Notes under the pieces: generated by a model
Seen by the model: only the letters and a program-made list of their open reading frames with translations
What the model was told of the DNA's origin: nothing
Database searches by the model: none
Position numbers and translations under genes: made by a program
In this document: positions 19,105 through 41,748 of the stretch, piece by piece
Numbering within the stretch: the first letter of the stretch is position 1
How the letters are laid out: every line of letters begins with the position of its first letter
From: Chthoniobacterales bacterium
Lineage (GTDB): Bacteria > Verrucomicrobiota > Verrucomicrobiia > Chthoniobacterales > JACTMZ01
Assembly (NCBI GenBank): GCA_018883245.1
Contig: VEQL01000003.1
Location: 80,478-144,477, forward strand
Direction: 5' to 3'
DNA length: 64,000 bases

Positions 19105-19129
19105 CGGCCGTTTCCCGCCGCCCGATGAC

Positions 19130-21631
19130 ATGAAATTTCCACGAGCACTCCGAAGCTGCCCACTGGCCCGTTTCGCCTTCGTATTTCTCGTTTTGCCCGC
19201 GGTGCTCCGCGCGCAATCCGCGGCTCCGGCGCAAATCCCGAGTTTCCTCGGATGGATCCCCATGCAACCGGTCACCGCAGGACAAACGATCGAATTGGAC
19301 ATGCACCGGTTTTATTTTGCGGGGGGGAGCGACTTGGGGCTGGCCCTGCCGGGACCCGTCACGGGGCAATACAGTGCGGCTTTCGATGATCAGACCTTCG
19401 CCTTGCAAGTCGCTTTGGACAAAAAGGCGTCGGGGCTGATCGAGATCCCGCTCCGGTTTTTCAGTCACCCGCCCGAGGGGCCTGCGCTCGGGCGCAAGGA
19501 GACAGGCGTCGCGAGCATGGCTGCGGGTGGCGCGGCGGAGAAACCGGTGCTCGAGGGTGTGCTGCTCATCGGCGTGCGTCCCGCCGACGGCAATCACTTC
19601 GTTTACCGGCCCAAAGGGCGCAAAGTTGGCAAAGTCTGCGTGGCCGGCCAATTCAACGGCTGGAACACCACGTCGCATGAACTCAAGCCCGCGCCCGACG
19701 GATCATTCGAGCTTTTCGTTCCCATGTCCCCGGGTGCGCAGCAATACAAGTTCGTGGTCGATGGCGAATGGACGTTGGATCCCGAGAATCCCGAACAGGC
19801 CGACGACGGATCCGGCGGGCGCAACTCGGTGGCGCGCGTGGCTGCGACCGACCGCGGGAAACCCCCGGTTGTCTTTGCGCGCTCCGCGGAGAGCGGAAAA
19901 GTCGTCTTCCGTGCTGTGCGCGGCGGAAGCGGCATTGTGCAGGCTTCCACTGTCCTCCAGTTGCCGGATGGCAATAGCCGGCCGGTCCCGCACGAGATTT
20001 CCGGCGAGGATGTTGTCGTCGATGCCGCGGGCGCGCCCCCGGGTTCCTGGGTTCGTGCGGTGGTGAGTGATGCCAAAGGCAATGTGAGCAACGCTGCCCG
20101 CGCGCCGGTGCAAACGCCGGCGGAATTCCAATGGCAGGATGGCATCATCTACTACGCTTTCACCGACCGATTTGCCAACGGCGACCAGTCCAACGACCGA
20201 CCGGTCAACGACGAACGCGTGCCCCCGCAGGCCAACTATCAGGGCGGCGACTTCCAAGGTATCCGGCGCAAGATCGACGAAGGCTATTTCTCCGATCTCG
20301 GCGTCAATGTGCTCTGGTTGGCCCCGCTCAACCGGAATCCGGACGGCGCGTGGCAGGAATATCTCCCGCCTTACCGCTTTTACACCGGCTACCACGGTTA
20401 TTGGCCCGTTTCGCACACCGAGGCCGAGCCGCGCTTCGGGGGTGATGCGGCCCTCGAGGAAATGATCAGCGCGGCCCACGGCGGAGACATTTACGTCATC
20501 GCCGACCTTGTCCTTAAGCATGTCCATGCCGACCATCCTTTGCGCAAGGAGCGCCCGGAGCTTTTCGGGGCTCTCGAATTACCCGACGGCAGCAAGAATC
20601 TGCGGCGCTGGGACGACCACCAGTTCACCACATGGTTCGAGGAATGGCTGCCCGCGTTCGACTTCGACCGGCCCGAGGCGGTCAAATTCCTGATCGGCAA
20701 CGCGGTCGATTTTGCCGTGCGCTACAAACTCGACGGCTACCGTCTTGATGCGGTCAAACACATCAAGCCTTCCTTCTGGTGGCGCTACCGCACCGCCATG
20801 CGCACGGCGGTCGATCCCGGACGCAAGGTTCCGCTCTACAGCGTGGGGGAGACCTTCATGGACCGCGAAGGCATAATGCGTTTCGTCGGTCCCAACATGC
20901 TCGACGGCCAGTTCGACTTTCCGCTCTATGACACCATCATCGACGTCTTCGCCAAACGGAAAAGCGGTTTCGAGGAGTTGGAGAAATCGCTTTCGTCGTC
21001 GGAGTCGGTTTACGGCAAGGAAACGCTGATGTCGCCGCTGCTCGGCAACCACGACAAGGCCCGGTTCATGGCCTATGCGGACGGCGATTTGCCCGATCCC
21101 TCGGAGTCCGACGAGGAGGAAGTCGGCTGGAAAAATCCGCCGAAGGTCGATGACCCGGCGGCCTACGAGCGCCTCAAGCTCGGCCTCACCTTCGTGCTGG
21201 GTATCGACGGCGTGCCGATGATCTACTACGGAGACGAAATCGGGATGAGCGGCGCGGGCGATCCCGACAACCGCCGGATGATGCGATGGGGCGACGGGGT
21301 GACCGCGGAGGAAAACAGCGTGCGCTCGCACTTTAGCAAGGTGGCCAAGGCGCGACGGGAGCACCCGTCCTTGCGCTACGGAAGCAGGCGGCCGCTGGTG
21401 GCCGACGGCGACCGCTACGCATTTGTCCGCGCACACCTCGGCGACAGCGCGCTGCTTGCCTGGAACCGCGGCGACAATGTGACCGAATACAAATTCGACG
21501 TTGCGCCCGAGATGGCCGACGGAACCTACGCGGATGTGCTTTCGGGCCGGGAGATCGAGGTCAAGAACGGCGAGACCGCATTCAAGCTCGAGCCGATGAA
21601 GTCGGCGCTGTTTGTCGCCAAGAAAGACTGA
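19130..21631 (+). CDS. GH13 alpha-amylase family glycoside hydrolase with CBM48/E-set module
   Basis: ATG at 19130 gives a signal peptide (MKFPRALRSCPLARFAFVFLVLPAVLRA). CBM48-like segment VCVAGQFNGWN...YKFVVDGEWTLDPENP. GH13 regions KLDGYRLDAVKHI, YSVGETF, LLGNHDKARF. Confidence 0.8.
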   Translation: MKFPRALRSCPLARFAFVFLVLPAVLRAQSAAPAQIPSFLGWIPMQPVTAGQTIELDMHRFYFAGGSDLGLALPGPVTGQYSAAFDDQTFALQVALDKKASGLIEIPLRFFSHPPEGPALGRKETGVASMAAGGAAEKPVLEGVLLIGVRPADGNHFVYRPKGRKVGKVCVAGQFNGWNTTSHELKPAPDGSFELFVPMSPGAQQYKFVVDGEWTLDPENPEQADDGSGGRNSVARVAATDRGKPPVVFARSAESGKVVFRAVRGGSGIVQASTVLQLPDGNSRPVPHEISGEDVVVDAAGAPPGSWVRAVVSDAKGNVSNAARAPVQTPAEFQWQDGIIYYAFTDRFANGDQSNDRPVNDERVPPQANYQGGDFQGIRRKIDEGYFSDLGVNVLWLAPLNRNPDGAWQEYLPPYRFYTGYHGYWPVSHTEAEPRFGGDAALEEMISAAHGGDIYVIADLVLKHVHADHPLRKERPELFGALELPDGSKNLRRWDDHQFTTWFEEWLPAFDFDRPEAVKFLIGNAVDFAVRYKLDGYRLDAVKHIKPSFWWRYRTAMRTAVDPGRKVPLYSVGETFMDREGIMRFVGPNMLDGQFDFPLYDTIIDVFAKRKSGFEELEKSLSSSESVYGKETLMSPLLGNHDKARFMAYADGDLPDPSESDEEEVGWKNPPKVDDPAAYERLKLGLTFVLGIDGVPMIYYGDEIGMSGAGDPDNRRMMRWGDGVTAEENSVRSHFSKVAKARREHPSLRYGSRRPLVADGDRYAFVRAHLGDSALLAWNRGDNVTEYKFDVAPEMADGTYADVLSGREIEVKNGETAFKLEPMKSALFVAKKD

Positions 21632-22802: not shown

Positions 22803-23165
22803 ATGGTCACGCTCTCACTCGATCAAGCCTCGGGCGTCCTTTTGCTGCACCCCGCGGGTCCTTTGACCGCGGAAGATTTCACGCAAATTGCCGCGACCGC
22901 CGACCCGTTCATCGAATCCAACGGCAGTCTCAAGGCCGTTGTCATCGAGGCCGCGCATTTTCCCGGATGGGAAAACTTCGGCGCGGCGGCGAGCCACTTC
23001 CGCTTCATCCGCGATCACCACCAAAAGATCCGCAAGGTTGCCATCGTCACCGATTCGCCGCTCGGCGCCGCGGCCGAACACCTGGGCTCTCACTTCGTGG
23101 CCGCCGAGATAAAGCATTTCCCGTCGTCCAGATCGTCCGAGGCGAAAGCCTGGGCTTCTGCATAA
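22803..23165 (+). CDS. STAS/SpoIIAA-like (DUF3478-type) domain protein
   Basis: ATG at 22803. The 120-aa protein with the pattern ...LKAVVIEAAHFPGWENFGAAASHFRFIRDHHQKIRKVAIVTDS... is typical of SpoIIAA-like STAS_2 proteins. Confidence 0.6.
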   Translation: MVTLSLDQASGVLLLHPAGPLTAEDFTQIAATADPFIESNGSLKAVVIEAAHFPGWENFGAAASHFRFIRDHHQKIRKVAIVTDSPLGAAAEHLGSHFVAAEIKHFPSSRSSEAKAWASA

Positions 23166-23266: not shown

Positions 23267-25516
23267 TCAGGCTTTCTTCGACCGGCGCCAGCGAACAAAG
23301 CCCGCGCCGCCGAGCAGCATCGCGGCGGCAGCCCACGTGCCGGGTTCGGGGATGATGCCGAACTTGAGGTCCAAGTTGTTGCCGTTCTGGACCAGATAGA
23401 AGCTGCCCTCGCCGAGCGGGTTGAGGAACCCGCCCGTTCCGTTGAAGGCTGCGACGTTCAGATTGAAGTTAGTGCTGTTGAAGCCATTGATGCCGCCGGC
23501 CGCGTTGAGGATGGTCCAAGTGTAGGTGGTCAACTTGTTCGTGGGTGCGGTGAAATTGACCGCGTTACCGTTGGTGTCGGGTGAAACGCCGGAGAGCGAC
23601 CAGAGGTTGATGTTGAACTTGTTCGTATCCGAAAGGCCGGTCAGGTCGAGCGCGCCCGTGATATTGATCAAGTCCCAGCCGGTCGAACTGCCCGCCGCGC
23701 CGGTCGCGTCATGGATTTGCCAGTTGTAGTTGCCGCCGCCGTCCCACGTGGCGTTGCCGGCGATGGTTTGCGTGCCGGGTGAATTGCCCGGGCTGATCGT
23801 GCCGCCGGAGCCGACGATGAGGCCTCCGATCGATCCCGAACCACCGAGGGTGGCTCCGCTTTCCACGGTGAAAATGCTGCTATTGACCGCCCCGTTCACC
23901 ACCATGGTCCCGCCGCTCACGGTCGTCGCGCCGGAATAAGTGCTGGTGCCGGAGAGGGTGAGTGTGCCCGCGCTGTTTTTCGCCAGGCTTCCCGCGCCCG
24001 AGATCGCGCCGGACGAATTGCCCGATTGGACGGTCACGACTGTCGCGTTGCTGATGTTGATGTTGCCGCCGGTGTAGGATTTCACGGCAGTGTTGGCTCC
24101 GGTGACATTGACCGTGCCACCCGAGACGTTGGTGATCGTGGTGTTGTTGCCCGCCACGTTGAGTGTCGCGGTGCTGGTGACGGAAGCCACCGTGCTGTTC
24201 GCCGAGGAGAGTGTCGTCGTGCCCGCGTTGAACTGCGCGCCGCTGACGGTGCCGGCATTGGTCAGCGTGCCGCCGTTGATGATCAGGGCATTGGCGATGC
24301 TGAAGTTGGCGAGGTCCAGCGTGGTGCCGCTGGCCAGCGTGACCGAACCGGACCCGAAGGCCGACGCGTGGCCCGCCGTCAGTGTCCCCCCGTTGAGCAA
24401 CGTGCCGCCGCTGAAGGAATTGGAGGCCGCCAGCGACAATTCGCCGTCACCGGTTTTGGTCAGGCCGCCGGCGCCGCTCATGGCGCCGCTCACGGTCGTG
24501 TTGTTGCTGCCGCTGATGGTGAGCTGGTTGCCGTTGTTGTTGATGGCGCCCGCGAAAGTGAGTTCGCCCGCGGAGGCGTCGAAGGTTTGCGCCGCTCCCA
24601 ACGTGACCTGGTTGGAGAAGGTCTGGCCGTTGGCACTGAGGTTGACGATGCCGTTCGAAACCGTCATGGCATTGCCTGAAATGGAGAAATTTCCGGCGGT
24701 GTTGGTGAAGATGATGCTTTTGAGCTGCAGCGACGAGGAGGAGTTGGTGGTGTTGGTCATCCACGCACCCGCAAAGACCAGCGTGTCGCCGTTCATCGGC
24801 GTGTTGTTGCCGTTCCAGTTGCCATAGGCATTGGTGCTTTCGTAATCATTCCAATTCCCGGTGAAGAGGTCGCCGATCCAAGTCAAAGTGGAGGCCGCGC
24901 GGAGGGTGGCGGTGCCGCTCAGACTGGGGTTCTGGTTGGTTCCGCCTGTCGCGCTGATGGCGGTAGCTCCCTGGTTCCAGCCGTCTCCCCAGGCGGCGGC
25001 ACGAAACGTAGTCATCGTGGTGGCCGCGTTGGATGCGAAAGTGACGTTGAGCGGAGCACCGCCCGCATTCGTGCTGACCGAGTCGGTCGAGGCCAGTGCG
25101 GTGGCGTAATTGTCCCTGTTCCAATACCAACCGGCGCTGGTTCTGCCGTTTGTGGTCCGGTAGAAAATACTGTCGAGGGCCGAGAAACTGAGGGAGTAGT
25201 TGGCCGCCGGCGAGACGGTGAATTGGAAATAATCGCCATTGAGCAATGCCATGGAAGCGCTGCTCGCGCCGAAGCTGTTGGCGGCGAGCGTGTTCAGGAC
25301 ATTGACGGGAGAGATGCCGTAGCCCAGAGTCAGGGGCGTCGCCGCTACACCTGTGGCCGCGTAATTCGTGGCAGCGCTGGCTTGGCCGCCTGTGTCGTAA
25401 ACGCCCCATCTCACGAGATTCGACTGCGCCCAGCCCGGAGAACTTGCGGTGGCAAGCAGCAGAGTGGCGAGGAGGAGACTGCGGTGGAGACCGCTCGGCT
25501 TGGGCTTCGTAGTCAT
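23267..25516 (-). CDS. Autotransporter-associated beta-strand-repeat protein with PEP-CTERM sorting signal
   Basis: 749 aa with a signal peptide. Repeated G-x-L-x-L/T-G-x-N-T-Y-S-G-x-T units (e.g. GTLTLSGTSTYSGATTVSGGTMVVNG). C-terminal IPEPGTWAAAAMLLGGAGFVRWRRSKK (PEP motif, TM, basic tail). Confidence 0.8.
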   Translation of the reverse strand: MTTKPKPSGLHRSLLLATLLLATASSPGWAQSNLVRWGVYDTGGQASAATNYAATGVAATPLTLGYGISPVNVLNTLAANSFGASSASMALLNGDYFQFTVSPAANYSLSFSALDSIFYRTTNGRTSAGWYWNRDNYATALASTDSVSTNAGGAPLNVTFASNAATTMTTFRAAAWGDGWNQGATAISATGGTNQNPSLSGTATLRAASTLTWIGDLFTGNWNDYESTNAYGNWNGNNTPMNGDTLVFAGAWMTNTTNSSSSLQLKSIIFTNTAGNFSISGNAMTVSNGIVNLSANGQTFSNQVTLGAAQTFDASAGELTFAGAINNNGNQLTISGSNNTTVSGAMSGAGGLTKTGDGELSLAASNSFSGGTLLNGGTLTAGHASAFGSGSVTLASGTTLDLANFSIANALIINGGTLTNAGTVSGAQFNAGTTTLSSANSTVASVTSTATLNVAGNNTTITNVSGGTVNVTGANTAVKSYTGGNINISNATVVTVQSGNSSGAISGAGSLAKNSAGTLTLSGTSTYSGATTVSGGTMVVNGAVNSSIFTVESGATLGGSGSIGGLIVGSGGTISPGNSPGTQTIAGNATWDGGGNYNWQIHDATGAAGSSTGWDLINITGALDLTGLSDTNKFNINLWSLSGVSPDTNGNAVNFTAPTNKLTTYTWTILNAAGGINGFNSTNFNLNVAAFNGTGGFLNPLGEGSFYLVQNGNNLDLKFGIIPEPGTWAAAAMLLGGAGFVRWRRSKKA

Positions 25517-25578
25517 GGTAGTAGTTCAGAAATTGCTGCGCTCATGATCGCAGCTTGAGAAAGATGCACGAGATTTTT

Positions 25579-25609
25579 GGGACGAATCGGTGGAAAAGCG
25601 GGACGAATC
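25579..25609 (-). promoter_or_regulatory. Candidate LytTR-type operator: two GATTCGTCCC repeats (read on the minus strand) with 21-bp periodicity
   Basis: The plus strand reads GGGACGAATC at 25579-25588 and again at 25600-25609. The reverse complement matches the element at 28270-28300 at 26 of 31 positions, including the spacer. It lies in the divergent intergenic region between 23267..25516(-) and the HK gene. Confidence 0.5.
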
Positions 25610-25688
25610 TGCGGAAGGTCACGGTGTGGTGCGCGATGACCTTTACGCGGTCTTGTCTTTTGCGTCCTCCGCGCGTTACGTGCGCGTG

Positions 25689-27524
25689 ATGTCACGACCG
25701 GTCCGGATCACGCCTTGGTGTTTGTGCGTCGCGCTGTTTGTGTGGTTGCCGGCGATGGCGCGTGCGGCGGAACCGTCGCCGGTGGTCATCGACGGGCAGC
25801 CTTTTCTCGCCGAGCTCGGACCGCATCTCGCGTTGCTGCAGGACCCCTCGGGCGCGCTGACGATCGATGACGTGCTGACACCGGGGCAGGCTTCGCAGTT
25901 CGTGCCCGCATCCGTGCCGGTGCCGACGTTCGGCTTCACCAAGGCCGCGGTCTGGATGCGCTTCGAGATCGAATCGCGCAGCGCGCGTGACGAACCGCTA
26001 ATGGTCGAGTTGGGTATGGCGCGGATGAGCCGGTTCGAATGGTATGTGGTGGCCGACGGCCGGCTCGAGCAGGGCAGGCAAACGAACCACCGACCGGGTT
26101 CATTGCGGAGCGGGGATGGCTGCCGATATCCGACGTTGTCGCTGGTTGTGCCGGCCGGCGGGAAACGGACGGTCTTGGCGCGTGCGCAGACGGATACCTC
26201 GATGTGGTTGCCCTTGACCGTGGGGTCGCCGCTGGAGTTCGACAATTTCACCGCGCGGCGCGACTTCCGCGATTTCGTGCAGGTGGGATTTTGTGCCGCG
26301 TTGTCTTTGCTCGGATTCGGGCTCTGGCTGGCGGGCGGGCGCAACCGGCAATTCCTCGGCGTGGGGGTGGCCATGGCCTTCGGGTTGCTGCATGCGATGA
26401 TCTTCAACGGTCTCTATGTCTGGTTCGGTGGCCCGTGGCCTGAGTGGTTCTCGCGTCAGGGTGCGCTGCTCTGCTCCATGCTCTTCACCATCGTCTTCAT
26501 CAAATTCAACGAAGACTTCCTCGGCTGGAACGCATTGTGCGCGGCGCAGAGGCGGGTGTTGGCGGCCAGCTATGTCGTGGGCGCTATCGCGTTGGCCATC
26601 GGACTTTTTCTGCCCTACGGCATCGCGGTGAAATTCCAGTTGCCGCTGCAGCTTCTCGCTCTCGGCGGTGCGGCCGGCGTGGCCGCGACGCAGTGGGTCC
26701 GTTGCCGGGGTGCACGCCTCGGCTTGTTCACCACCGCGTGGCTCATTTTTCTCGGATCGCTCGGTCTGCTCGTCATGCAGTTCAACGGCCTTCTTCCCGT
26801 GCTCCTGTCGCCGGCCGACGTGATGCGCATTATTGTGCCTTCGGTCTTCGTGGTTTTCCTGCTGGCCAGCGCCAATTCCTACCGCGCCGTCCTGCAGATG
26901 CAGACGCAGGTGGCGGAATTGCGCGAGGCCGAGACGTCGGCTCGTCTCGAGTCGCTGCGCTACCAGCTCAATCCGCATTTTCTGTTCAACACGCTCACCT
27001 CGATCCAGGAACTTGCGCACGAGGCACCGGCGCGCATCCCGCCTCTCGTCGCGCGTCTGGCCGACTTCCTGCGTCTACGACTCAAGCCGGAGCCGTTGCC
27101 CGTCATCACTCTGGCGAAGGAGTTGGAATCGGTGCGCTCCTACCTCGAGATCGAGCAGGTGCGCTTCGAGGAGCGGCTGAAGGTCGACTATGACATCTCT
27201 GCCGAGGCCGCCGCCTGTGCGTTGCCCGAGATGGTGCTCATGCCTCTCGTCGAGAATGCCGTGAAATACGGCTTCGAAGATTCCGACCGCGTCGGGATCC
27301 GCCTGATGGCGCGCGTGCAGGACGGCCGCTTGAACATTCGGGTGGAGAACAACGGTTCGTTGCACGAGGGGCGTCGCCGCGGCTCCGGCGCCGGGGTGGG
27401 GGTGGAAAACATCCGGCGGCGCCTCGAACTGCGCTACGGCAGCGCGGCCCGTTTCGATTTGCGGCAGGAGGGCGGACACGTGGTGGCGGAGGTGGAAATT
27501 CCGGCACAGACCCCGCAAGTATGA
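25689..27524 (+). CDS. Sensor histidine kinase, 7TMR-DISM-type N-terminus with LytS/His_kinase + HATPase C-terminus
   Basis: ATG at 25689 gives a signal peptide. A periplasmic beta-rich domain is followed by about 7 TM helices, then LNPHFLFNTL (LytS-type phosphoacceptor) and an ATPase with the NAVKYG box. Stop overlaps the RR start (ATGA). Confidence 0.85.
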   Translation: MSRPVRITPWCLCVALFVWLPAMARAAEPSPVVIDGQPFLAELGPHLALLQDPSGALTIDDVLTPGQASQFVPASVPVPTFGFTKAAVWMRFEIESRSARDEPLMVELGMARMSRFEWYVVADGRLEQGRQTNHRPGSLRSGDGCRYPTLSLVVPAGGKRTVLARAQTDTSMWLPLTVGSPLEFDNFTARRDFRDFVQVGFCAALSLLGFGLWLAGGRNRQFLGVGVAMAFGLLHAMIFNGLYVWFGGPWPEWFSRQGALLCSMLFTIVFIKFNEDFLGWNALCAAQRRVLAASYVVGAIALAIGLFLPYGIAVKFQLPLQLLALGGAAGVAATQWVRCRGARLGLFTTAWLIFLGSLGLLVMQFNGLLPVLLSPADVMRIIVPSVFVVFLLASANSYRAVLQMQTQVAELREAETSARLESLRYQLNPHFLFNTLTSIQELAHEAPARIPPLVARLADFLRLRLKPEPLPVITLAKELESVRSYLEIEQVRFEERLKVDYDISAEAAACALPEMVLMPLVENAVKYGFEDSDRVGIRLMARVQDGRLNIRVENNGSLHEGRRRGSGAGVGVENIRRRLELRYGSAARFDLRQEGGHVVAEVEIPAQTPQV

Positions 27525-28255
27525 AGCCGGTGCGTTGCCTCGCTGTCGATGACGAGCGCCTTGCGCGCCGGCATGTCGTGCGTTTGCTTTCCACGCGCCC
27601 GGACATCGTGGTGGTGGGCGAAGCGGGCAGCAAAGCCTCCGCCCTGCGGGCCATTCGCGAGCACCAACCGGAATTGCTCCTGCTCGATGTGCAGATGCCG
27701 CGCGGTGGCGGTTTCGACGTGCTTGCCGCCTTGGACAACCCCCCGCATGTGATCTTCGTCACCGCATTCGACCGTCACGCCACCCACGCCTTCGAGGTCA
27801 ACGCGATCGACTTCCTCCTCAAACCGATCAACGAGGAACGTTTCCACCGTTCCCTCGATCGCGCGGTGCGGCTCATCCGCAGCGGCGCACTCGATGTCGC
27901 GGCGGTCAGGCCGCAATTGCAACCGGACGATCTCGCGCTCGTGCCGCTCGGCGGATCGGGGCGCTTTGTCGGCGTGGACGACATTGTTCTTGTCGAAGCC
28001 CAGGGAAATTACTCGCGCATCACCACGCGCGACGGGAAACACCTCACCGCGCGGCAGACGCTCAAGCAGTGGTCTGCCTGCCTGCCGCCGGAAATGTTCG
28101 TGCAGCTCGATCGCGGGCTTATCGTCAATCGTCACTGCATCCGCACGGCCGAATTTTCCGTGCGCTCGGCGCTGGTCAGGCTCGGGGAGCACGGCCAGAA
28201 ACTGCATTTGGGTGCGGCCGCGGCCTCGCGCTTGCGCGAATTGCTCGCGCCTTGA
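27521..28255 (+). CDS. LytTR/AlgR-family response regulator
   Basis: Receiver domain (VDDERLAR..., LLLLDVQMP, FVTAFD). C-terminal LytTR DNA-binding domain (LVEAQGNYSRITTRDGKHLTARQTLKQW). Confidence 0.9.
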   Translation: MKPVRCLAVDDERLARRHVVRLLSTRPDIVVVGEAGSKASALRAIREHQPELLLLDVQMPRGGGFDVLAALDNPPHVIFVTAFDRHATHAFEVNAIDFLLKPINEERFHRSLDRAVRLIRSGALDVAAVRPQLQPDDLALVPLGGSGRFVGVDDIVLVEAQGNYSRITTRDGKHLTARQTLKQWSACLPPEMFVQLDRGLIVNRHCIRTAEFSVRSALVRLGEHGQKLHLGAAAASRLRELLAP

Positions 28256-28269
28256 GACATTATCGCGCC

Positions 28270-28300
28270 GATTCGTCACGGTTTTACGCCGATTCGTCAC
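28270..28300 (+). promoter_or_regulatory. Candidate LytTR-type operator: two GATTCGTCAC repeats with 21-bp periodicity
   Basis: CGCCGATTCGTCAC occurs perfectly at 28266-28279 and 28287-28300. The element sits between the RR stop (28255) and the PEP-CTERM gene start (28342). An ATAAAT -10-like hexamer lies at 28320-28325. Confidence 0.5.
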
Positions 28301-28341
28301 ATGTTTTTCGACGACACAAATAAATCGCGCTTCAGTGAAGC

Positions 28342-29049
28342 ATGCGCAAGTTGCCCATTTTCCTCGCCGCTGTAGCCACACTGGCCTTCGTTCCCGTGCA
28401 AGCCGCGATCATTTTCACCGTCAACGGCACCGTGACGACAGCGGCCGCCGGATGGAACCTCAACGACCCGGTGACGTTCACTTGGACATTGGCCGGCAAC
28501 ACGCCCGAAGCATCAGCCGGCGCCACGACCATGACCTGGTCTGAGGAACTGTCCACGCAACCGGTCCTTTTCGCCAATGTGACCGGCACCGGACTGACGG
28601 GGACTTATACCCGGCCCGTCCAATTCCTCGGCAGTCCGTATTCTTTTCTCCAAGTGAATCTCGAGCCAGCGACCCTCATTTACGCAGGAACCGATGCGGA
28701 GTTTATCGGGCTCTACGCGCCGAACAGCTCTCAAGTGTTCAGGGTCTTTGCCAACGTAGGAGCCGCGTTCGGTTATGCCATGCAAAATCCCGCGCCGTCG
28801 CCCGATACCTACTTTCCGAGCTATTTGGGAACATACAGCTCGGTCACGACTTCATCCTATCCCATCCAAAGTTCCGTCAGCACCGCGAGCGGAACGATGG
28901 AGTTTAGCCCGACCTCATTCACCATTTCCCAAGTCACAGAACCCGTTCCCGAACCCGGCACCTGGGTCGCCGCGGCGCTGCTCGCCGGCGGTGCGGCTTT
29001 CGTGCGCTGGCGCAAACGCCGCGACGAAGGGCCGAAAGAAGCAGCCTGA
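28342..29049 (+). CDS. PEP-CTERM sorting-domain secreted protein (hypothetical)
   Basis: Signal peptide MRKLPIFLAAVATLAFVPVQA. C-terminal VPEPGTWVAAALLAGGAAFVRWRKRR. No other recognised domain. Confidence 0.75.
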   Translation: MRKLPIFLAAVATLAFVPVQAAIIFTVNGTVTTAAAGWNLNDPVTFTWTLAGNTPEASAGATTMTWSEELSTQPVLFANVTGTGLTGTYTRPVQFLGSPYSFLQVNLEPATLIYAGTDAEFIGLYAPNSSQVFRVFANVGAAFGYAMQNPAPSPDTYFPSYLGTYSSVTTSSYPIQSSVSTASGTMEFSPTSFTISQVTEPVPEPGTWVAAALLAGGAAFVRWRKRRDEGPKEAA

Positions 29050-29052
29050 ACG

Positions 29053-31341
29053 ATGCGCGCCCGCAACCTGAAAACCCCGCGCAAGTTCAGCGTTGTCATG
29101 GCGCCGCCTTCCGCGATCGCCGGTTTTTTCCTTGCGGCCTTTCTCTTTCTTGCTCCCGCCGCGCAAGCGGCGGACGGGACATGGAGCGGGGGTTCGGGCA
29201 GCTTGTGGAGCGACACTGGCAATTGGAGCGCGTCGCCGGTGCCGGGTTCGGGCAACACGGCGACGTTCAATAGTGCCGGCAACGGCAACACCACCATCGA
29301 TTTGGGCGTGGGTGTGACGATCAGCAACCTTGCGTTTGATACCGCGAATGCCGCGGCTTACACGATCGGTTCGGGTGCGGTCGGTTCACAGACGAACACC
29401 CTCAATAACAGCAACGCTGTCATCGCGGTGGCCGGAACGGTCGCCAATAGCCAAGTCATCAACGCCAACATCGTGCTGGGCACCGCGATCACGGGCACGA
29501 CGCGCATTGCCAATGACGCTTCTGGCGCCAGTGGTGTGGCTCTGAATTTGGCCGGCAACATCACCGGCGGCACGGGAGGAACGGCAGGGACAAAAACCGT
29601 GATTGTTTCCGGGACGGGTGCGGTGAACCTCCAAGGCGCCATAACCAGAGGCGGAGCGAGCAGCCTCAATTTGTTGAATCTCGGAACAGGAACTATGACG
29701 CTCAGCGGCAGTGCCACCAGCGTTCTCAGCACCCTGCGGGCCACGAACTCAAGTGGTCGCATCATCGTGGATGGTCAAACCGTCAACGTGAGCTCTAACT
29801 CACAATTCGGAAATAGCAGCGGCAACGGAGGAAGTTTTGAACTGAGATCGGGAAGCGCAACATTCTCCAATGGCCTCACAGGCACCGGTGCCTACGCTGC
29901 CCAGGAAGTTAAAATCACCGGCGGAACATTCACTGCCAGCACCGTCTCCGCGACCAACATCGTGGTCAACGGCGGAACTTTTTCCAGCGGCATCACGCGA
30001 GGTGCGTTCACGCTCGATGGTTCAGCGGCTGCCGCCTACATCGGCGCCAACATTGCGTCGAACACTCCCCTCGTAAATCTCGTGCAGGGCACGCTCGGCG
30101 CGAAGGTGGCATCCGTTGTCATCAATAACCCCAGTCTCACTTTGTCTGGCGCAGAAGTGACAATTAAGGCTGCCGATGCCGGCGATGTGGCACGCACCAT
30201 AAGCATCTGGAGCCCCGTTTCCGGAGCCTATGGATTTACGAAGACGGGCGGTGGAGCGCTGAAGATCGAGACAGCTGCCACTAATGCGATCGATAGTCCG
30301 GCGACACTCAACACCTACAGCGGCACGACCACGCTGGAAGCCGGGCAGCTGATTCTAAACAAACCCACGGCTTTGGGCACTGGCGCCTTCGTCATTCTCG
30401 GGGGCTCTATTGACTGCACGACCTTCATGTATACGAACGTCACTCTCAGCAACAACAATGCGCAGAGCTGGAACGGTGACTTCGCCTACGTCGGTTCCGT
30501 CACAAATTTGAACCTCGGCGCAGGCGCGGTGACGATGAACGCCAGCCGCACGGTCACCGTGAGTAACAACGAACTCACCGTGGGCGGCGCGATCAGCGGA
30601 TCCGGCTACGGTTTGACAAAGGCGGGCGCGGGCACGCTGAACCTTACCGGCGCGAGCACCTATTCGGGCGCCACGGCGGTGAACGCGGGCACGCTCAAGG
30701 TGAACGGATCGGTGGACAGCAGCGTGACCGTGAACAGCGGCGGCACGCTGGCCGGCAGCGGCTATGTCGGCGGGCTCATCGTCGGTTCGGGTGGCACGAT
30801 CAGTCCGGGCAACTCTCCGGGCACGCTCACGGCCACCAACGCGGTGTGGAATGCCGGCGGCAACTACAACTGGCAGATCTATAACGCCACGGGCGCGGCC
30901 GGTTCGGGTTGGGACTTGCTGACCGTCACCGGAACACTCGACCTGTCCGCACTTTCCGTCGGCAGCGAATTCAACATCAACATATGGTCCTTGTCGCAGG
31001 TCACACCCGACGTGGACGGCGAGGCGATCAACTTCAACCCGGCGCAAAATTACTCTTGGACCATCGCCACCGCGTCGGGCGGTATTACCGGCTACAGCGG
31101 CACCAGCCAGTTTTTGATCAACACCAACGCCACCAAAGGCGCCGCCGGTTTTGCCAACCTGCTTGATGGCGGTAACTTCTCCGTCGTTAAGAGCGGAAGT
31201 AATCTCAACCTTGTCTTCACCTCGGCCAGCGCCGCGGTCCCCGAACCCGGCCCATGGGCGGCGGCAGCGCTGCTCGCCGGCGGCGCAGGCTTCGTGCGCT
31301 GGCGCAAACGCGCGAATGTTTCCCAAGGGCAGGGAACGTAG
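29053..31341 (+). CDS. Autotransporter-associated beta-strand-repeat protein with PEP-CTERM sorting signal
   Basis: 762 aa with a signal peptide. Same repeat type as 23267..25516 (e.g. GTLNLTGASTYSGATAVNAGTLKVNG). A paralogous C-terminal module (GGLIVGSGGTISPGNSPGT...NYNWQI...) is followed by VPEPGPWAAAALLAGGAGFVRWRKR. Confidence 0.8.
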   Translation: MRARNLKTPRKFSVVMAPPSAIAGFFLAAFLFLAPAAQAADGTWSGGSGSLWSDTGNWSASPVPGSGNTATFNSAGNGNTTIDLGVGVTISNLAFDTANAAAYTIGSGAVGSQTNTLNNSNAVIAVAGTVANSQVINANIVLGTAITGTTRIANDASGASGVALNLAGNITGGTGGTAGTKTVIVSGTGAVNLQGAITRGGASSLNLLNLGTGTMTLSGSATSVLSTLRATNSSGRIIVDGQTVNVSSNSQFGNSSGNGGSFELRSGSATFSNGLTGTGAYAAQEVKITGGTFTASTVSATNIVVNGGTFSSGITRGAFTLDGSAAAAYIGANIASNTPLVNLVQGTLGAKVASVVINNPSLTLSGAEVTIKAADAGDVARTISIWSPVSGAYGFTKTGGGALKIETAATNAIDSPATLNTYSGTTTLEAGQLILNKPTALGTGAFVILGGSIDCTTFMYTNVTLSNNNAQSWNGDFAYVGSVTNLNLGAGAVTMNASRTVTVSNNELTVGGAISGSGYGLTKAGAGTLNLTGASTYSGATAVNAGTLKVNGSVDSSVTVNSGGTLAGSGYVGGLIVGSGGTISPGNSPGTLTATNAVWNAGGNYNWQIYNATGAAGSGWDLLTVTGTLDLSALSVGSEFNINIWSLSQVTPDVDGEAINFNPAQNYSWTIATASGGITGYSGTSQFLINTNATKGAAGFANLLDGGNFSVVKSGSNLNLVFTSASAAVPEPGPWAAAALLAGGAGFVRWRKRANVSQGQGT

Positions 31342-31446
31342 AGGGCCGTGGCCCGCGATCGGTTCCGCCTTTCGAATTCGCGGCCAAGCTGTCCACCATT
31401 TGCCATATGGTGACAGCGCGTTAAGGTGCGGGGGATTTTTTGTTCC

Positions 31447-33258
31447 ATGGAAAACGAAGAGCCGAACATTTTTGTAAAGACGGGATCCGCGGTGGCCGAC
31501 TTTTTCACCCGCTGGTGGCGCGAGGCGACGGGCCCGATCGAATGGCATCACGCGCAGACGCCATTCCATGCGGTTTTGCGTCGCGTTCTGCTGTGGGTTC
31601 CGGTGGCGGTTTTGGCGGCTGTGGTTTTCGGCTCGATCGGGTTGCACTTTTTTGTCGGCTGGCGGGCGCGCGATCTGGCACGCAAGGCGGTGGCCAGTGC
31701 GGAGGAGGGGCGGTGGCCGGCGGCGCAGGTGCAGATCGGTTCGGCCCGCAACCTCCGCCCTGAGGATCCGGCCGTGCAATGCGCGCTCGCGGTCATCGAG
31801 ACGAAGATGGGGTTGCCTTCGGCCGCAAAGACGTGGAGTCAATTGCCCGAAGGTTTTCAACTGACCAAGGAGGAACTCGAAGCGCGGGCCTTGGCCATGA
31901 TGCGCAACGGCGACGAACCGCAATATGCCGAGGCTCTGGCTGCGCTGGAGGAGGCCGGGTTCGGGGCCGAGGCTGCGGCCATCCGGGTGGAGAGGAATGT
32001 GTCCCGCGGCAATTTGCAGCAGGGTATCGCCGAAGCGCGTGCGGCTGTGCGGTCCTCTGACACCCCGGCCCACCGACTCACTTTGGCGCGTCTTCTGTTG
32101 GCCCGGCATGGTGTTTTCCTGCAAAGCTCGAACTCGCCCGGGCCCGAAGATCTCGCGGGTGCGAAGGAAATTTCGGACATCGCGGACTCTCTGCTGGGCG
32201 CACCCGAAGGCGAGCAACTCTTGGCTTTGATCTTCGCCAATTTGCGTCTTACGGGGAGCCAACGGCAGCGCTGGTCCGCCGCCGCATGGAAACGTCCCGC
32301 CCCGGACAACCCCGCTTTGCTCCCCGCCGCCACGGCTATGATCGCTGCCGGCGATGCCACAAGGGAGGAAATGACCAACCGGCTCAAAGCCGTGTATGCA
32401 GGGGCCGAGCCTTCACGGAAAACCGCCTTGGCCGCATGGCTGGTCATGCACGGCGGCGATCCCGAGGGTGCCCTGGTTTATCTGCCACCCGCGGAAGCAA
32501 CGCGCCATGCCAACGCGTTCCTCGCGCGCTGCGCAGCGTTGTCCTCGTTGGGCCGATGGGAGGAGTTGCGTGCGCTGGCCGAAGGACCTGGCAGCGTGCC
32601 TCGCAGCTTGATGTCCGCCGTGGCGGCGCAGGCGAACGCCAAACTTGATCGCGGAGCGCAGGCCGAGAAATTTGCGCAGGACGCCGTGCGCACCGCCGCC
32701 CGCGAAGGCACCATCGTCATGACCCTGCGCCTGCTCGACGAATCGGGATTCCGCGAACTGGTCGACAGGGAGGTTGTTGCGCTGTGCGGCGAAACCGGGA
32801 CATCGGAGCTTTTCTTCCGCTTGGCGCGCGAACGCTTCGGCCGCGGGGGGCAACCGGCAAGCCTGCAAGCCGCTTACGAACGTGCCGCCGGAGCTTCCCC
32901 GCACGCCACGGCCGTCCAGAGCCAACAACTTTATGACAGACTGCTCTCCGGGTCTCCTGTCGATCCACAGCAAACCGCCGCCGCGCTGGCCGCGTCGCCC
33001 ACAGATGTGAATCTTCGCCTGACGCACGCCCTCGCTCTGCTCAAAACCGGCCGTGCGGCCGAAGCCCTGGCCGTCTTCGATGAATTCGACGTTTTCGTCG
33101 AACAGTTGCCGCCCGGCCAGCAAGCCATCGCCGCCGCCATTCTCGGTGCCAACGGCCAAGGAAAGGCGGCAGAGCAACTGGCTCGCTCGCTCGACCCCGA
33201 CTATCTTGCCCCCGGTGAGTATGCCCTCATTGCGGAATGGCGGGCGGCCAAAGACTGA
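31447..33258 (+). CDS. Hypothetical N-terminally anchored, Ala-rich helical-repeat (TPR-like) protein
   Basis: ATG at 31447 (the track start at 31426 is GTG). One TM (VLLWVPVAVLAAVVFGSIGLHFFVGW) is followed by about 520 aa of Ala/Leu/Arg-rich helical repeats. No catalytic motif recognised. Confidence 0.5.
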   Translation: MENEEPNIFVKTGSAVADFFTRWWREATGPIEWHHAQTPFHAVLRRVLLWVPVAVLAAVVFGSIGLHFFVGWRARDLARKAVASAEEGRWPAAQVQIGSARNLRPEDPAVQCALAVIETKMGLPSAAKTWSQLPEGFQLTKEELEARALAMMRNGDEPQYAEALAALEEAGFGAEAAAIRVERNVSRGNLQQGIAEARAAVRSSDTPAHRLTLARLLLARHGVFLQSSNSPGPEDLAGAKEISDIADSLLGAPEGEQLLALIFANLRLTGSQRQRWSAAAWKRPAPDNPALLPAATAMIAAGDATREEMTNRLKAVYAGAEPSRKTALAAWLVMHGGDPEGALVYLPPAEATRHANAFLARCAALSSLGRWEELRALAEGPGSVPRSLMSAVAAQANAKLDRGAQAEKFAQDAVRTAAREGTIVMTLRLLDESGFRELVDREVVALCGETGTSELFFRLARERFGRGGQPASLQAAYERAAGASPHATAVQSQQLYDRLLSGSPVDPQQTAAALAASPTDVNLRLTHALALLKTGRAAEALAVFDEFDVFVEQLPPGQQAIAAAILGANGQGKAAEQLARSLDPDYLAPGEYALIAEWRAAKD

Positions 33259-33440
33259 GCGCAGGACCGCACTGCGCGGCAAGATTGTCCCTGTGCTGGG
33301 TAATCGGGCTTTTTCGGTTTCTGCTGCTTCGCCGCAAGCGACTTCGATGACGCGCGGCTTTCCTGTGTCCGGAATTCCATGATCTCGGCGCTGCGGAAAG
33401 AGTTTGACCGCCGAATTACGGTGCTTAGTTTGTGCACCTC

Positions 33441-33761
33441 ATGAGCCTTGGGCGCCGCTTCCGTATCCTTTGGATGGCCGGTCTGTCGCTGTTGGCGGTG
33501 ACTCAACTCACCCATGCGTTCGAGCATTGGGAGATCGCCGCCAATGCGGATTGCGTGTCTCACGCCCATGCCGATGCAGACCATGGCGACGGCGGTTCGC
33601 GCCACGATCACGGCTGCACTTCGCATGACCACGCACCAGCGCTTCCGGGCGGCATCTTTCTGCTCACCGTCACCGAAACGGTCGCCGTCGTGTCGTCGGA
33701 TCATCTCGGAGTGCCTGCGCCGCGATCGTCTTCGATCGATCACCCGCCTCAATTGTCCTGA
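33441..33761 (+). CDS. Small His/Asp/Cys-rich putative periplasmic metal-binding protein (CzcI-like position)
   Basis: ATG at 33441. Signal-like N-terminus (RILWMAGLSLLAVTQLTHA), then HWEIAANADCVSHAHADADHGDGGSRHDHGCTSHDHAP. Located directly upstream of the czcC-like gene. Confidence 0.45.
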   Translation: MSLGRRFRILWMAGLSLLAVTQLTHAFEHWEIAANADCVSHAHADADHGDGGSRHDHGCTSHDHAPALPGGIFLLTVTETVAVVSSDHLGVPAPRSSSIDHPPQLS

Positions 33762-33880
33762 CCTGCGACAGGCGAAGTGTGCCTGTCGCCCCGGCGTGTC
33801 TGCCGGACCCGCGCATCTCTTGCCGGATGCGTTCATGCCGCCGACCGGCGCGGCTCGAGTATCTGCCGGTCATCAGGACC

Positions 33881-35191
33881 ATGAAAACACAATCAACATT
33901 CGGGAAAATTGCGATCGCGCTCTGCGCGGTGGTCGCATCGGAAGGCGCCGCTGCGGAGTTGTCGCTGCAGGATGCGGTCAACACCGCGCTGATGAACAAC
34001 CGCGAACTTGCCGCGGCACGCCATGTGGTGGGGCAGGGGCAGGGGCGCTTGCGCCAGGCGGGCCTGCTGCCCAATCCCGAGGTGGAGTTCAACGGCTACG
34101 GCGATTTTGTTTCCGGCTCCGAAGGCGAGGGGGCTTTCGTCATCGGGCTGCACCAGTGGTTCCCGCTGACGGCGCGGCTCGGCTTGGCGCGGCAGGTGGC
34201 CCGCGTCGATGTGGCCATGGCGCTCCGCGAAGTGCGCAACCGCGAACGTCTGCTGGTCGCCGAGGTGCAGAAAGTTTACGCGCGCGCCCAGGCGGCCCGC
34301 CGTCGTGAGCAATCCTCGGCCCAGGCACGCAACGATTCGTCCGACCTCGTGTCGCTCGCGGGAGAGCGGCTCGCCTCGGGTCAGGGTTCGCTCGCCGAGT
34401 CCGCACTCGCCCGTGTGGACGAGCAGCGCTGGGGAAATGCGGCTGATGTCGCGGCGGCCGAAGCGGAAAAATGCCTCCTCGAAATGAAAACGGCGCTCGG
34501 CCTGGGCGCCGACGCTCCGCTCTCTCTCACCCAGTCGCTGAAGTCGGTGGTCGATGAGTTGCGCGACAAAGCGCGGAGCGGGCGCATTTCCTGCCGTCCC
34601 GACATGGAACTGGCCATGCTGGCCGCGGACAAATCGTCCGCCGAAGTCGCGTTGGCCAAGGCGGGCGCGTGGGAGGGAATTCGTCTCGGCATCGAATACA
34701 TGCAGGATCGAAGCGTGGACCAACCGGGCGGGATTTCCACCGGGGATTTTCTCGGCGTGAAAGTCACGCTTCCTTTGCCGGTGTGGGACCGCAAGGTGGG
34801 CGAAACACAGGAGCGTCAGGCTGCGGCGGAAGCCAAAGCTGCGCAGTTGCGCGCGCTCGAACTCGAGGTGGCCAACGACATCGCTGCCGCGCGCCAACAG
34901 GCGGCTTTGTTCGAGAAGCAGTGGTCGCGATACCGCGGGACAACAGAACCGCTGGTCGAGTCGGGAAGCCGCGAAATTTCGCAGGGATTCAGCGAGGGCC
35001 GCGTCGATGCGCGCGATCTCCTGATGGTCCGGGCGCAGAACGCGAGCCTGCGCGTCGAATCAACAGCCATGCTGGAAAACCTTGCCCTCGCGCTCATCGA
35101 TCTTGAAGCGGCGGCGGGAAGTCATCCGGCCATGTCCGCGCCGTATTTGCAAGAGGCGCCGCTGCACCGCAGGAAGAAAACGAAATCATGA
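33881..35191 (+). CDS. czcC: TolC-family outer-membrane efflux protein (CzcC-like)
   Basis: ATG at 33881 gives a signal peptide. Two OEP repeats (LSLQDAVNTALMNNRELAAAR...). 436 aa. Stop overlaps the following ATG (ATGA). Confidence 0.85.
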   Translation: MKTQSTFGKIAIALCAVVASEGAAAELSLQDAVNTALMNNRELAAARHVVGQGQGRLRQAGLLPNPEVEFNGYGDFVSGSEGEGAFVIGLHQWFPLTARLGLARQVARVDVAMALREVRNRERLLVAEVQKVYARAQAARRREQSSAQARNDSSDLVSLAGERLASGQGSLAESALARVDEQRWGNAADVAAAEAEKCLLEMKTALGLGADAPLSLTQSLKSVVDELRDKARSGRISCRPDMELAMLAADKSSAEVALAKAGAWEGIRLGIEYMQDRSVDQPGGISTGDFLGVKVTLPLPVWDRKVGETQERQAAAEAKAAQLRALELEVANDIAAARQQAALFEKQWSRYRGTTEPLVESGSREISQGFSEGRVDARDLLMVRAQNASLRVESTAMLENLALALIDLEAAAGSHPAMSAPYLQEAPLHRRKKTKS

Positions 35192-35192
35192 A
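35158..35192 (+). repeat. Direct repeat copy 1 (35 bp) covering the czcC 3' end, stop and overlapping ATG
   Basis: gccgctgcaccgcaggaagaaaacgaaatcatgaa is identical to 37614-37648. Checked base by base. Confidence 0.95.
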
Positions 35193-37596: not shown

Positions 37597-37613
37597 ACGC
37601 GGTCCTGGCGAAA

Positions 37614-37648
37614 GCCGCTGCACCGCAGGAAGAAAACGAAATCATGAA
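37614..37648 (+). repeat. Direct repeat copy 2 (35 bp) immediately 5' of and including the czcB start
   Basis: Identical 35-mer, 2456 bp downstream of copy 1. In the czcC reading frame it again encodes PLHRRKKTKS-stop. Confidence 0.95.
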
Positions 37649-38597
37649 ACTCATCCTAACCATCGCCATCATTGCCGTCGCCGCGTCAGCGCTGAATGCC
37701 GGGCCCGGCCACGATCATCCCGAAGAACCGGGCGGAGCCGCAGTGCAGGGCGGGCCTGTGGAGTTGACGCAACAACAGGCCGACAATCTCGGCCTGCAGA
37801 CTGTTGAAGCGGAAATCACCGAACTGGCGCCGACCTTGGAAGTGCCGGCCGTCTTCGTTCTGCCGCCCGAACGCCACGCGCGCATCACGGCGCCGTTTGC
37901 GGGTCGCGTCACCGCGCTCCTGGCCAAGCTCGGCGATCACGTGCAGCGCGAACAACCGCTTTTGCGTGTCACTCCGTTGGCCGTGGGAAGTCCGCCGCAG
38001 GAAATCAAAGCCCCGCTCGACGGGGTCATATTCGAACAGGATGCGGTCATCGGCCTCCCTTTCACTCCGGAAACCACGCTCATGCAGACAGGCGATTACC
38101 GCGAGTTGCTGGCACGCGGGAGTTTTTACCAATCGCCCGAACTGACGCGCGTCGAGCCCGGGCAAAAGACCGTGGTCTTGCTCGACGTTTTCCCGGGCGA
38201 ACGCTTCGAGGGCAAGGTGCAGCGCGTTGATCCCGGGCACACGGATGGCAGCGCGTTCTTCCACATTTACGCGCTGGTGCCGAATCCCGAAGACAAGCTG
38301 CATCCGAACTATCGCGGACGCATGCTCATCGAAACCGGCGCGCCCCAGACCGTTGTGGCCGTGCCGCGACGTGCCGTCCTCGGCCGATTGGGAGCGAAGT
38401 TCGTCTATGTGCAGACCGCACCGCTGCATTTCGAGCGGCGCGAGGTGGTCGCCGGTCTGGTCTCGGGCGACCGCGTGGAAATTGTCGAGGGCGTGCTGCC
38501 CGGCGATGCGGTTGTGACCAACGGCCACTACCAACTGCAATACACCGGGGGCGGCGGGGCACCCGCCGAAGAAGCCGGTCACGATCACGCGCACTGA
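37644..38597 (+). CDS. czcB: Efflux RND periplasmic adaptor (CzcB/HlyD family)
   Basis: ATG at 37644 gives the signal/anchor MKLILTIAIIAVAASALNA. Barrel-sandwich hybrid and beta-barrel regions. HDH motifs at both ends (GHDHPEE, GHDHAH). Confidence 0.85.
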   Translation: MKLILTIAIIAVAASALNAGPGHDHPEEPGGAAVQGGPVELTQQQADNLGLQTVEAEITELAPTLEVPAVFVLPPERHARITAPFAGRVTALLAKLGDHVQREQPLLRVTPLAVGSPPQEIKAPLDGVIFEQDAVIGLPFTPETTLMQTGDYRELLARGSFYQSPELTRVEPGQKTVVLLDVFPGERFEGKVQRVDPGHTDGSAFFHIYALVPNPEDKLHPNYRGRMLIETGAPQTVVAVPRRAVLGRLGAKFVYVQTAPLHFERREVVAGLVSGDRVEIVEGVLPGDAVVTNGHYQLQYTGGGGAPAEEAGHDHAH

Positions 38598-38601
38598 TCC
38601 C

Positions 38602-41744
<3,143 letters not shown>

Positions 41745-41748
<4 letters not shown>

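Follow-up and report, generated by a model that had tools for sequence, protein, structure and literature searches.

A LytS/LytTR two-component system with a 7TMR-DISM sensor is a candidate switch for PEP-CTERM surface protein genes in Chthoniobacterales

Introduction

PEP-CTERM/exosortase proteins are abundant in environmental bacteria, and their regulation is known for Proteobacteria only, where it involves PrsK/PrsR and sigma-54. The phyletic pattern of PrsK, PrsR and PrsT matches that of a DNA motif found upstream of proteobacterial PEP-CTERM genes (Haft 2006; PMC1569441). In Table 1 of the same study Verrucomicrobium spinosum is listed without PrsK, PrsR and PrsT, and further regulators and motifs are said to await discovery outside the Proteobacteria (PMC1569441). 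Genetic support for the PrsK/PrsR system comes from a floc-forming Aquincola, a member of the Betaproteobacteria (PMC9850573). Here we describe a locus from a Chthoniobacterales bacterium (Verrucomicrobiota; GenBank assembly GCA_018883245.1, contig VEQL01000003.1, positions 80,478 to 144,477, a stretch of 64,000 nucleotides hereafter called the window), in which a sensor histidine kinase (HK) and a response regulator (RR) of the LytS/LytTR type lie among three genes for PEP-CTERM proteins. A first-pass annotation of the window had proposed that HK and RR form a switch controlling the flanking PEP-CTERM genes through shared operators, a proposal supported by the synteny of related loci and by a metagenome scan conducted with the operator alone. 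We consider, with a probability of roughly 0.7, that the locus is dedicated to regulating surface proteins sorted by an exosortase, and that HK/RR would switch on PEP-CTERM genes via these operators.

The first-pass annotation had also regarded such wiring as undescribed. That view does not hold for two-component control of PEP-CTERM genes as such, which was known from PrsK/PrsR/PrsT (PMC1569441), and stands for the version with a LytS kinase, a LytTR regulator and a 7TMR-DISM sensor. Full-text searches of the available library retrieved no paper that links LytTR or 7TMR-DISM to PEP-CTERM or an exosortase, and control of PEP-CTERM genes by such a system appears to be undescribed. No new principle is involved, LytTR systems, 7TMR-DISM sensors and two-component control of PEP-CTERM genes each being already known. 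For the Verrucomicrobiota, the locus supplies a candidate consisting of a kinase and its regulator, a precisely defined operator and a TPR protein conserved as an accessory. Its regulon can be predicted from sequence alone, its sensor is a defined target for ligand screening, and the timing with which the cell surface is decorated with sorted proteins becomes directly testable.

Results

The unit comprises six genes (23267-33258), whose order and strands, as given by the first-pass annotation, hold in the list of open reading frames (ORFs) and in Pfam and NCBIfam scans. Gene A (23267..25516, minus strand, 749 amino acids) is divergent from the kinase gene (25689..27524, plus strand), which is followed on the same strand by the gene for RR (27521..28255), gene S (28342..29049, 235 amino acids), gene B (29053..31341, 762 amino acids) and gene T (31447..33258). 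A, S and B encode secreted proteins with a PEP-CTERM tail, and T encodes a membrane-anchored helical protein. Since B starts only 3 nucleotides after S, the two genes probably constitute one operon; the gap between B and T is 105 nucleotides. Apart from the tails of A, S and B, neither a strict nor a loose pattern detected any PEP-CTERM tail within the 64 kb, so a dense background of such tails does not account for their clustering.

Two copies of a directional element accompany these genes. The pattern GATTCGTC-N13-GATTCGTC occurs with 0 mismatches at 25581-25609 (minus strand) and 28270-28298 (plus strand) and has no further copy in the window; when up to 3 mismatches were allowed, no more copies were found in the window except for one weak match within the kinase gene. 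By our own arithmetic, the chance expectation for this exact 16-base pattern in the window is about 3e-5 copies. Written as 10-mers, the element reads GATTCGTCMC-N11-GATTCGTCMC, that is, two direct half-sites with a 21-bp period. Operator 1 (GATTCGTCCC-N11-GATTCGTCCC, 25579..25609, minus strand) is directed to gene A and ends 62 nucleotides before its start codon; it is the operator nearest to the kinase gene in the window and is oriented away from it. Operator 2 (GATTCGTCAC-N11-GATTCGTCAC, 28270..28300, plus strand) is directed to S-B, begins 15 nucleotides past the RR stop codon and ends 41 nucleotides before the start codon of S. The window has just two intergenic regions in front of PEP-CTERM genes, and each of them holds one copy, directed at the gene concerned. 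An unsupervised repeat search also recovered the pair, as an inverted repeat (I7) of 36 nucleotides with 83% complementarity. The operator-like elements proposed previously were in this way confirmed as exactly two directional copies. Their geometry (two direct repeats of about 9-10 bp, a period of about 21 bp and a promoter-proximal location) matches the classic LytTR geometry, and their TTCGTC core is the core of the AlgR site CCGTTCGTC (PMC4064291).

The genomic context was compared for 12 kinase-homolog loci, which together with the window amount to 295 kb. One of them, L007, was the sole full-length kinase among the matches listed in a genome-collection scan with the generic LytS motifs PHFLFNTL and PLVENAVK, which also included unrelated LytS kinases. 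The close set was defined by an HK identity of at least 48% and consists of L001, L003, L005, L087, L088, L091, L092 and the window. All eight close loci retain an intact HK-RR pair and carry PEP-CTERM genes, which flank the pair directly in seven cases and lie 3.5 and 9 kb from it in L005; the synteny check proposed in the first-pass annotation thus gave a positive answer throughout this set. The cargo proteins of the relatives are otherwise unrelated, and only their tails, plus the PATR protein of L001, match A, S or B.

A scored operator scan of the 295 kb returned 13 sites, all of them intergenic and all within HK-RR modules. Eleven are located 41-78 nucleotides upstream of PEP-CTERM start codons; of the other two, one lies upstream of a small ORF and the kinase gene (L003) and one upstream of a 1,039-amino-acid gene that is cut by the end of the locus. 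In L092 a perfect proximal half-site, GCAGATTCGTCAC, and a TTGGAC hexamer precede a PEP-CTERM gene, and with this locus added, 12 of 14 operator copies precede PEP-CTERM genes. The operator in L005 is found at the PEP-CTERM gene that is 9 kb away from the kinase gene, which indicates that the element follows the cargo genes and is not tied to the kinase alone. An operator is also present upstream of the kinase gene in L087 and L003, pointing to positive autoregulation in some relatives.

When the operator-aligned promoters were inspected by eye, about 8 of 13 displayed a TTGAC-like hexamer 6-8 nucleotides past the proximal half-site. A regulator placed just upstream of such a weak -35 element would have the geometry of an activator. 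A consensus scan found no consensus sigma-70 promoter in the region, which fits either activator dependence or a consensus that differs from that of Escherichia coli, so that we do not deem the promoters absent. No sigma-54 element of the GG-N10-GC type (-24/-12) was found at a suitable position when the two promoter regions of the window were read directly.

More distant homologs (HK 33-37% and RR 36-49% identical) carry a variant operator between the RR gene and the next gene, with the 21-bp period retained. The variant is GATTCATGCC-N11-GATTCGTGAC in L089 and L094 and consists of pairs ending in TCAC in L090 and L093. In L093 the gene that follows encodes a PEP-CTERM protein. In L089 (operator 12800-12830, gene from 12923), L094 (operator at about 12664-12694, gene from 12807) and L090 (gene from 12681) it encodes a giant surface protein, of 3,700 to more than 6,900 amino acids. 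The giant surface proteins found beside distant pairs measure 4,874 (with TIG, Kelch and MBG domains), more than 3,738, 6,961 and 19,263 amino acids; the C-termini of those in L089, L090 and L094, and hence any sorting tail, fall outside the fetched loci. The rule predicted for the whole family is that a sensor and a regulator are followed by a directional repeat and this in turn by a secreted surface protein, with PEP-CTERM cargo as its Chthoniobacterales version. Some close loci hold more than one regulator. L003 carries two HK-RR pairs, and additional LytTR regulators are encoded in L088 (18333-21373) and L091 (21442 to the end). One of those in L088 has a HisKA-type kinase as its partner and lies ahead of a further PEP-CTERM gene, and the intergenic repeat behind it is a different one (TTGGCT, with 12-nucleotide spacing). 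This arrangement suggests that several LytTR circuits for PEP-CTERM genes may run in parallel in the genomes of L088 and L091.

The operator was then used on its own as a query against metagenomes, with the exact pattern GATTCGTCMC-N11-GATTCGTCMC (18 fully specified bases), for which about ten matches would roughly be expected by chance. At least 120 metagenome stretches bear the operator, and 80 of them were loaded. PEP-CTERM tails were called with a relaxed pattern, a stricter one having missed many true tails. A PEP-CTERM ORF started within 300 nucleotides downstream of 49 of the 77 arrays with at least 700 nucleotides of downstream sequence, in comparison with 1 of 56 arrays in the opposite-orientation control. 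This control was used instead of random positions, which gave 30% matches, a figure inflated by positions within PEP-CTERM ORFs. These findings reveal an orientation-specific link between the operator and PEP-CTERM genes.

A LytS kinase and a LytTR regulator are encoded beside the operator in five of the 80 metagenome loci (L111, L127, L140, L143, L167), where the operator occupies one of the two positions seen in the window, right after the regulator gene or divergent from the kinase gene. Elsewhere, half-sites are arranged in tandem with an exact 21-bp period, six in L106 and four each in L107, L163 and L096; these arrays of GATTCGTCCC span L106 3884-3998 (minus), L107 4855-4927 (minus), L163 4828-4900 (plus) and L096 983-1055 (plus). 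Most of them precede PEP-CTERM genes with the tail type VPEPSTYAMALAGLACGGYSLFRRRKRA, unlike the tail type of the window. Such repeated half-sites imply that several regulator dimers may bind cooperatively. In two stretches (L167 3720-3750, ORF 3633-4721; L144 11301-11331) the tail downstream of the operator is of the VPEID/IPEID type (...VPEIDPAGFGSVAALLTGVLGLIERRR) and not PEP, and the operator may accordingly serve more than one class of exosortase cargo.

HK consists of a signal or transmembrane segment, a periplasmic 7TMR-DISMED2 domain (PF07696, 78.7 bits, cutoff 22), seven transmembrane helices (7TMR-DISM_7TM, PF07695, 32 bits, cutoff 29) and a LytS-type core, in which His_kinase (PF06580) reaches 80.3 bits (cutoff 25.2) and HATPase_c is present at 21.4 bits, below its cutoff of 26.4. 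Its match in the PDB is limited to the kinase core (6swj, E=1e-17). In the public annotation of this metagenome-assembled genome (MAG), the kinase is FGM15_01945, a protein of 644 amino acids starting at GTG 25590. Because the 36 full-length homologs measure 602-627 amino acids and GTG 25590 falls within operator 1, the true start is most likely ATG 25689, the deposited one probably being 33 codons too early. The sensor domain of HK belongs to the family represented by RetS, which has a carbohydrate-binding-module fold, and LadS, which binds calcium (PMC7695008); a carbohydrate ligand for HK would be a guess at the level of the family.

RR is composed of REC (PF00072, 71 bits) and LytTR (PF04397, 49.8 bits, cutoff 22.6) domains. 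Its top NCBIfam match is BtsR, with 125 bits against a cutoff of 246, and LytR scores lower; RR was consequently rejected as an equivalog of either, both scores being under the curated cutoffs. The start of RR overlaps the HK stop codon by 4 nucleotides, which suggests translational coupling and argues for the two proteins being cognate partners. By all sequence-level criteria, HK and RR are a LytS/LytTR two-component system with a 7TMR-DISM sensor.

Turning to the putative cargo, gene A encodes PATR/TIGR02601 repeats (52.1 bits in Pfam, cutoff 27) and the tail IIPEPGTWAAAAMLLGGAGFVRWRR, which scores 17.6 bits with the Pfam PEP-CTERM model, under its cutoff of 20.7. The S protein is recognised by TIGR02595 (PEP_CTERM, 18.2 bits, above the cutoff of 16) and shows no further recognisable domain. 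B again carries PATR repeats; its tail is not reported by the Pfam and NCBIfam PEP-CTERM models at E<=0.01, and the DNA encoding it is 85% identical to that of the S tail (repeat search, D3). All three tails nevertheless share the motif (I/V)PEPG(T/P)W, a run of hydrophobic residues and the basic cluster RWR(K/R), and relatives carry the same tail. Signal peptides were read from the translations: A begins with MTTKPKPSGLHRSLLLATLLLATASSPGWAQ, S begins with MRKLPIFLAAVATLAFVPVQA and B contains ...FFLAAFLFLAPAAQA. The paralogy of A and B noticed in the first-pass annotation was verified by BLASTP (44% identity across about 420 C-terminal residues, E=2e-74) and extends to the DNA level (repeats I1-I6). 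The L001 orthologue of A is 47-56% identical and likewise divergent from HK. Pfam and NCBIfam scans of A and B detected no beta-barrel translocator domain.

The product of gene T, whose start at 31447 agrees with the NCBI record, matched no Pfam domain or NCBIfam family. The structure prediction that the first-pass annotation had suggested for it was performed with AlphaFold (26 homologs) and gave a confident all-alpha model (pLDDT 89.4), in which one N-terminal transmembrane helix is followed by a TPR-like solenoid of about 30 helices and about 540 residues. Foldseek searches with this model retrieved only generic TPR scaffolds (Ctr9, IFT70, Ski3, OGT and APC subunits; TM-scores 0.2-0.3), and the topology is ambiguous, as basic residues are found on both sides of the transmembrane helix. 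Homologs of T with 25-43% identity are encoded beside HK-RR in L001, L003, L087, L088 and L091 and partially in L005; counting the window, this amounts to 7 of the 8 close loci. Their position and strand vary, and they usually have no operator in their own orientation (L003, L087, L088, L091), features that speak for T as a component of the system and not as an output of it. The family contains about 115 clusters, and every named member comes from Chthoniobacterales. A second T protein of the same MAG (P0122, FGM15_10860; 70% identical) is encoded on another contig, of 30.5 kb, an indication that this genome may hold the module twice.

Beside gene A, a SpoIIAA-like gene (STAS, PF11964, E=4e-16; 22803..23165, plus strand) encodes a possible accessory of the module. 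Its ORF is listed from 22719, and the homologs align only from residue 28-29. Homologs with 61-65% identity occur beside HK-RR in L003, L005 and L087, so that the module is accompanied by such a gene in 4 of 8 loci including the window. On the T side, a terminator-like hairpin followed by a T-run (33283..33305, plus strand), detected by a consensus scan only, lies 25 nucleotides past the stop codon of T and is probably the end of the unit. An Rfam scan of the window gave one tRNA (51955-52036, minus strand) as its sole match, and within the unit it detected neither a riboswitch nor a leader RNA.

Every polytopic ORF in the 64 kb was assigned to another family (an ABC permease, a DUF1295 protein and a fatty-acid desaturase), and no exosortase is found among them, in line with what the first-pass annotation had stated. 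Its description of the locus as a self-contained island was not sustained: the exosortase would be encoded elsewhere, T and often the SpoIIAA-like gene belong to the conserved module, and marks of a mobile island are missing. A mobile genomic island was ruled out by the uniform GC content (0.60-0.65) and by housekeeping flanks, namely an amylase on one side and an OEP/TolC-like protein and an AcrB-type RND pump on the other.

The first of these flanks, upstream of the unit, is a gene for a 919-amino-acid secreted protein of the alpha-amylase family with CBM48/AMPK1_CBM glycogen-binding modules (18872-21631), which is not kept beside the module in relatives. Downstream, 33432-41748 is occupied by an apparent metal-efflux RND cluster that includes a His-rich protein of 109 amino acids (HAHADADHGDGGSRHDHGCTSHDH), an AcrB/CzcA-like pump (38602-41748, 876 bits) and the OEP/TolC-like gene (33779-35191); none of its products was recognised as a membrane-fusion protein. 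Within the same region, an 802-amino-acid ORF (35188-37596) shows only a weak rhamnosidase-domain match and a minus-strand ORF (37686-38636) has no match, and gene calls there are uncertain.

Discussion

The mechanism that we propose starts with an extracytoplasmic cue, which would be sensed by the periplasmic 7TMR-DISMED2 domain of HK. The LytS-type core would then phosphorylate the co-translated LytTR regulator, and a dimer of RR is predicted to bind the two direct 10-bp half-sites GATTCGTCMC, 21 bp from start to start, just upstream of a weak -35 element. Once bound, RR would recruit RNA polymerase and activate both the divergent gene A and the downstream S-B genes, and transcription may continue into T. 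Export of the A, S and B proteins would depend on their signal peptides, and their PEP-CTERM tails would be processed by an exosortase encoded elsewhere. A broader proposal, to which we give slightly less than even odds, is that HK, RR and T represent an independently evolved, three-part verrucomicrobial counterpart of PrsK/PrsR/PrsT and the main switch for exosortase cargo, its operator, expanded elsewhere into arrays of up to six half-sites, marking a large regulon that crosses taxa and includes PEP-CTERM proteins, VPEID-CTERM proteins and giant adhesins of freshwater and soil bacteria.

Several observations weigh against a dedicated PEP-CTERM module controlled by HK and RR. No PEP-CTERM ORF was detectable downstream of 28 of the 77 metagenome arrays; some of these correspond to truncated or frameshifted genes or contigs (L125, L170) and others, probably, to chance single matches in low-GC contigs. 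The PEP-CTERM gene at 5671-6438 of L005 has no operator. The promoters show no recognisable -10 element, and in front of the two PATR genes (A in the window and its counterpart in L001) the hexamer resembling a -35 element is weak. The dependence of A, S and B on an exosortase is predicted solely from their tails. Finally, the metagenome regulators found beside exact copies of the operator are only 33-39% identical to RR of the window. This low identity indicates that the half-site is recognised by a broad clade of LytTR regulators, and paralogous regulators in one genome could share sites or compete for them. Strict co-evolution of regulator and operator is ruled out by the same observation.

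The breadth of half-site recognition is an argument for the alternative that the operator is read by a different regulator, be it a LytTR paralog or a master regulator from another part of the genome, or else by RR acting as a repressor. The local HK-RR pair would in that case be one input among several. The presence of several LytTR regulators per locus in L003, L088 and L091 points in the same direction, and the arrays of four to six half-sites suggest cooperative multimers, which would be able to act either way. In contrast, the operator is always located right after the RR gene or divergent from HK, down to an HK identity of 33%, and its sites lie upstream of the -35 element and not over the -10 element or the start site, as would be expected of an activator. 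The non-cognate, HisKA-partnered LytTR regulator of L088 is followed by a different repeat, TTGGCT. On balance, we regard a different reader of the operator, or repression by RR, as unlikely.

Less likely still is an envelope-stress or surface-sensing circuit with HK, RR and T as its core, in which T would serve as a co-sensor or as a scaffold for the exosortase or for polysaccharide export, and the PEP-CTERM genes would be part of a mixed regulon. The retention of T beside HK-RR while the cargo varies, and the inconsistent presence of a T-directed operator in front of it, would agree with such a core. The distant homologs, with giant adhesin-like genes as their apparent targets, and the roughly one third of metagenome arrays that precede tail-less ORFs would likewise speak for a mixed regulon. 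Among the relatives examined, however, no stress-response genes (for example for proteases, chaperones or sigma/anti-sigma pairs) are conserved in the module, and most of what this alternative proposes is compatible with a dedicated PEP-CTERM switch. A merely coincidental neighbourhood, in which HK-RR controls something else and the repeated motif is incidental, is highly improbable: PEP-CTERM genes are indeed common in the phylum (V. spinosum has 65; PMC1569441) and a nearby one in L005 is devoid of an operator, but the only three tails in 64 kb all adjoin the HK-RR pair, the association persists in all eight close loci despite rearrangements, with an operator conserved in front of cargo that is unrelated beyond its tails, and the orientation control separates 49 of 77 from 1 of 56.

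The proposed switch shares single features with several characterised systems. In the cargo, the PATR repeats of A and B recall type Va autotransporters, and their shared C-terminal module aligns to the passenger regions of EprS and ShdA; the C-terminus of A and B is formed by a PEP-CTERM tail instead of a barrel. At the level of the operator, AgrC/AgrA and the peptide-quorum LytTR systems of Firmicutes offer a parallel, in which a dimer occupies two direct repeats directly upstream of an activator-dependent promoter (PMC4227749). Sensor, signal, phylum and regulon are all distinct from those of AgrC/AgrA. At the level of the sensor, HK resembles RetS and LadS of Pseudomonas aeruginosa, which have the same periplasmic sensor domain and 7TM module and also control a surface or biofilm lifestyle. 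RetS and LadS, however, are hybrid kinases that act on the Gac/Rsm pathway and are not known to have a LytTR partner or an operator of their own, whereas in HK the 7TMR-DISM module is fused to a LytS-type core.

The AlgZ(FimS)/AlgR system of P. aeruginosa resembles the HK/RR pair in kinase class (PF06580), in the architecture of the regulator and in the TTCGTC core of the binding site, and its outputs, alginate and type IV pili, are surface structures as well. AlgZ is not known to carry a 7TMR-DISMED2 sensor. Binding sites of AlgR frequently occur singly, at a long distance from the promoter or pointing either way, in contrast to the fixed 21-bp pair described here, and PEP-CTERM genes are not among its known targets.

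PrsK/PrsR/PrsT provides the closest parallel in overall design, namely a transmembrane kinase, a regulator and a TPR protein tied to PEP-CTERM genes with a conserved upstream motif. Membership of HK, RR and T in that system was ruled out, given that none of them matches TIGR02916, TIGR02915 or TIGR02917 and that Pfam finds no Sigma54_activat domain in RR. The components are not homologous: a 7TMR-DISM/LytS kinase takes the place of the TIGR02916 kinase, a REC-LytTR regulator without a sigma-54 AAA+ domain that of the TIGR02915 regulator, and T does not match TIGR02917, the model for the TPR lipoprotein. The DNA element differs in the same sense, since the motif of the present module is a direct repeat with a 21-bp period placed before a sigma-70-like -35 element, whereas the Prs system combines an enhancer with a -24/-12 promoter.

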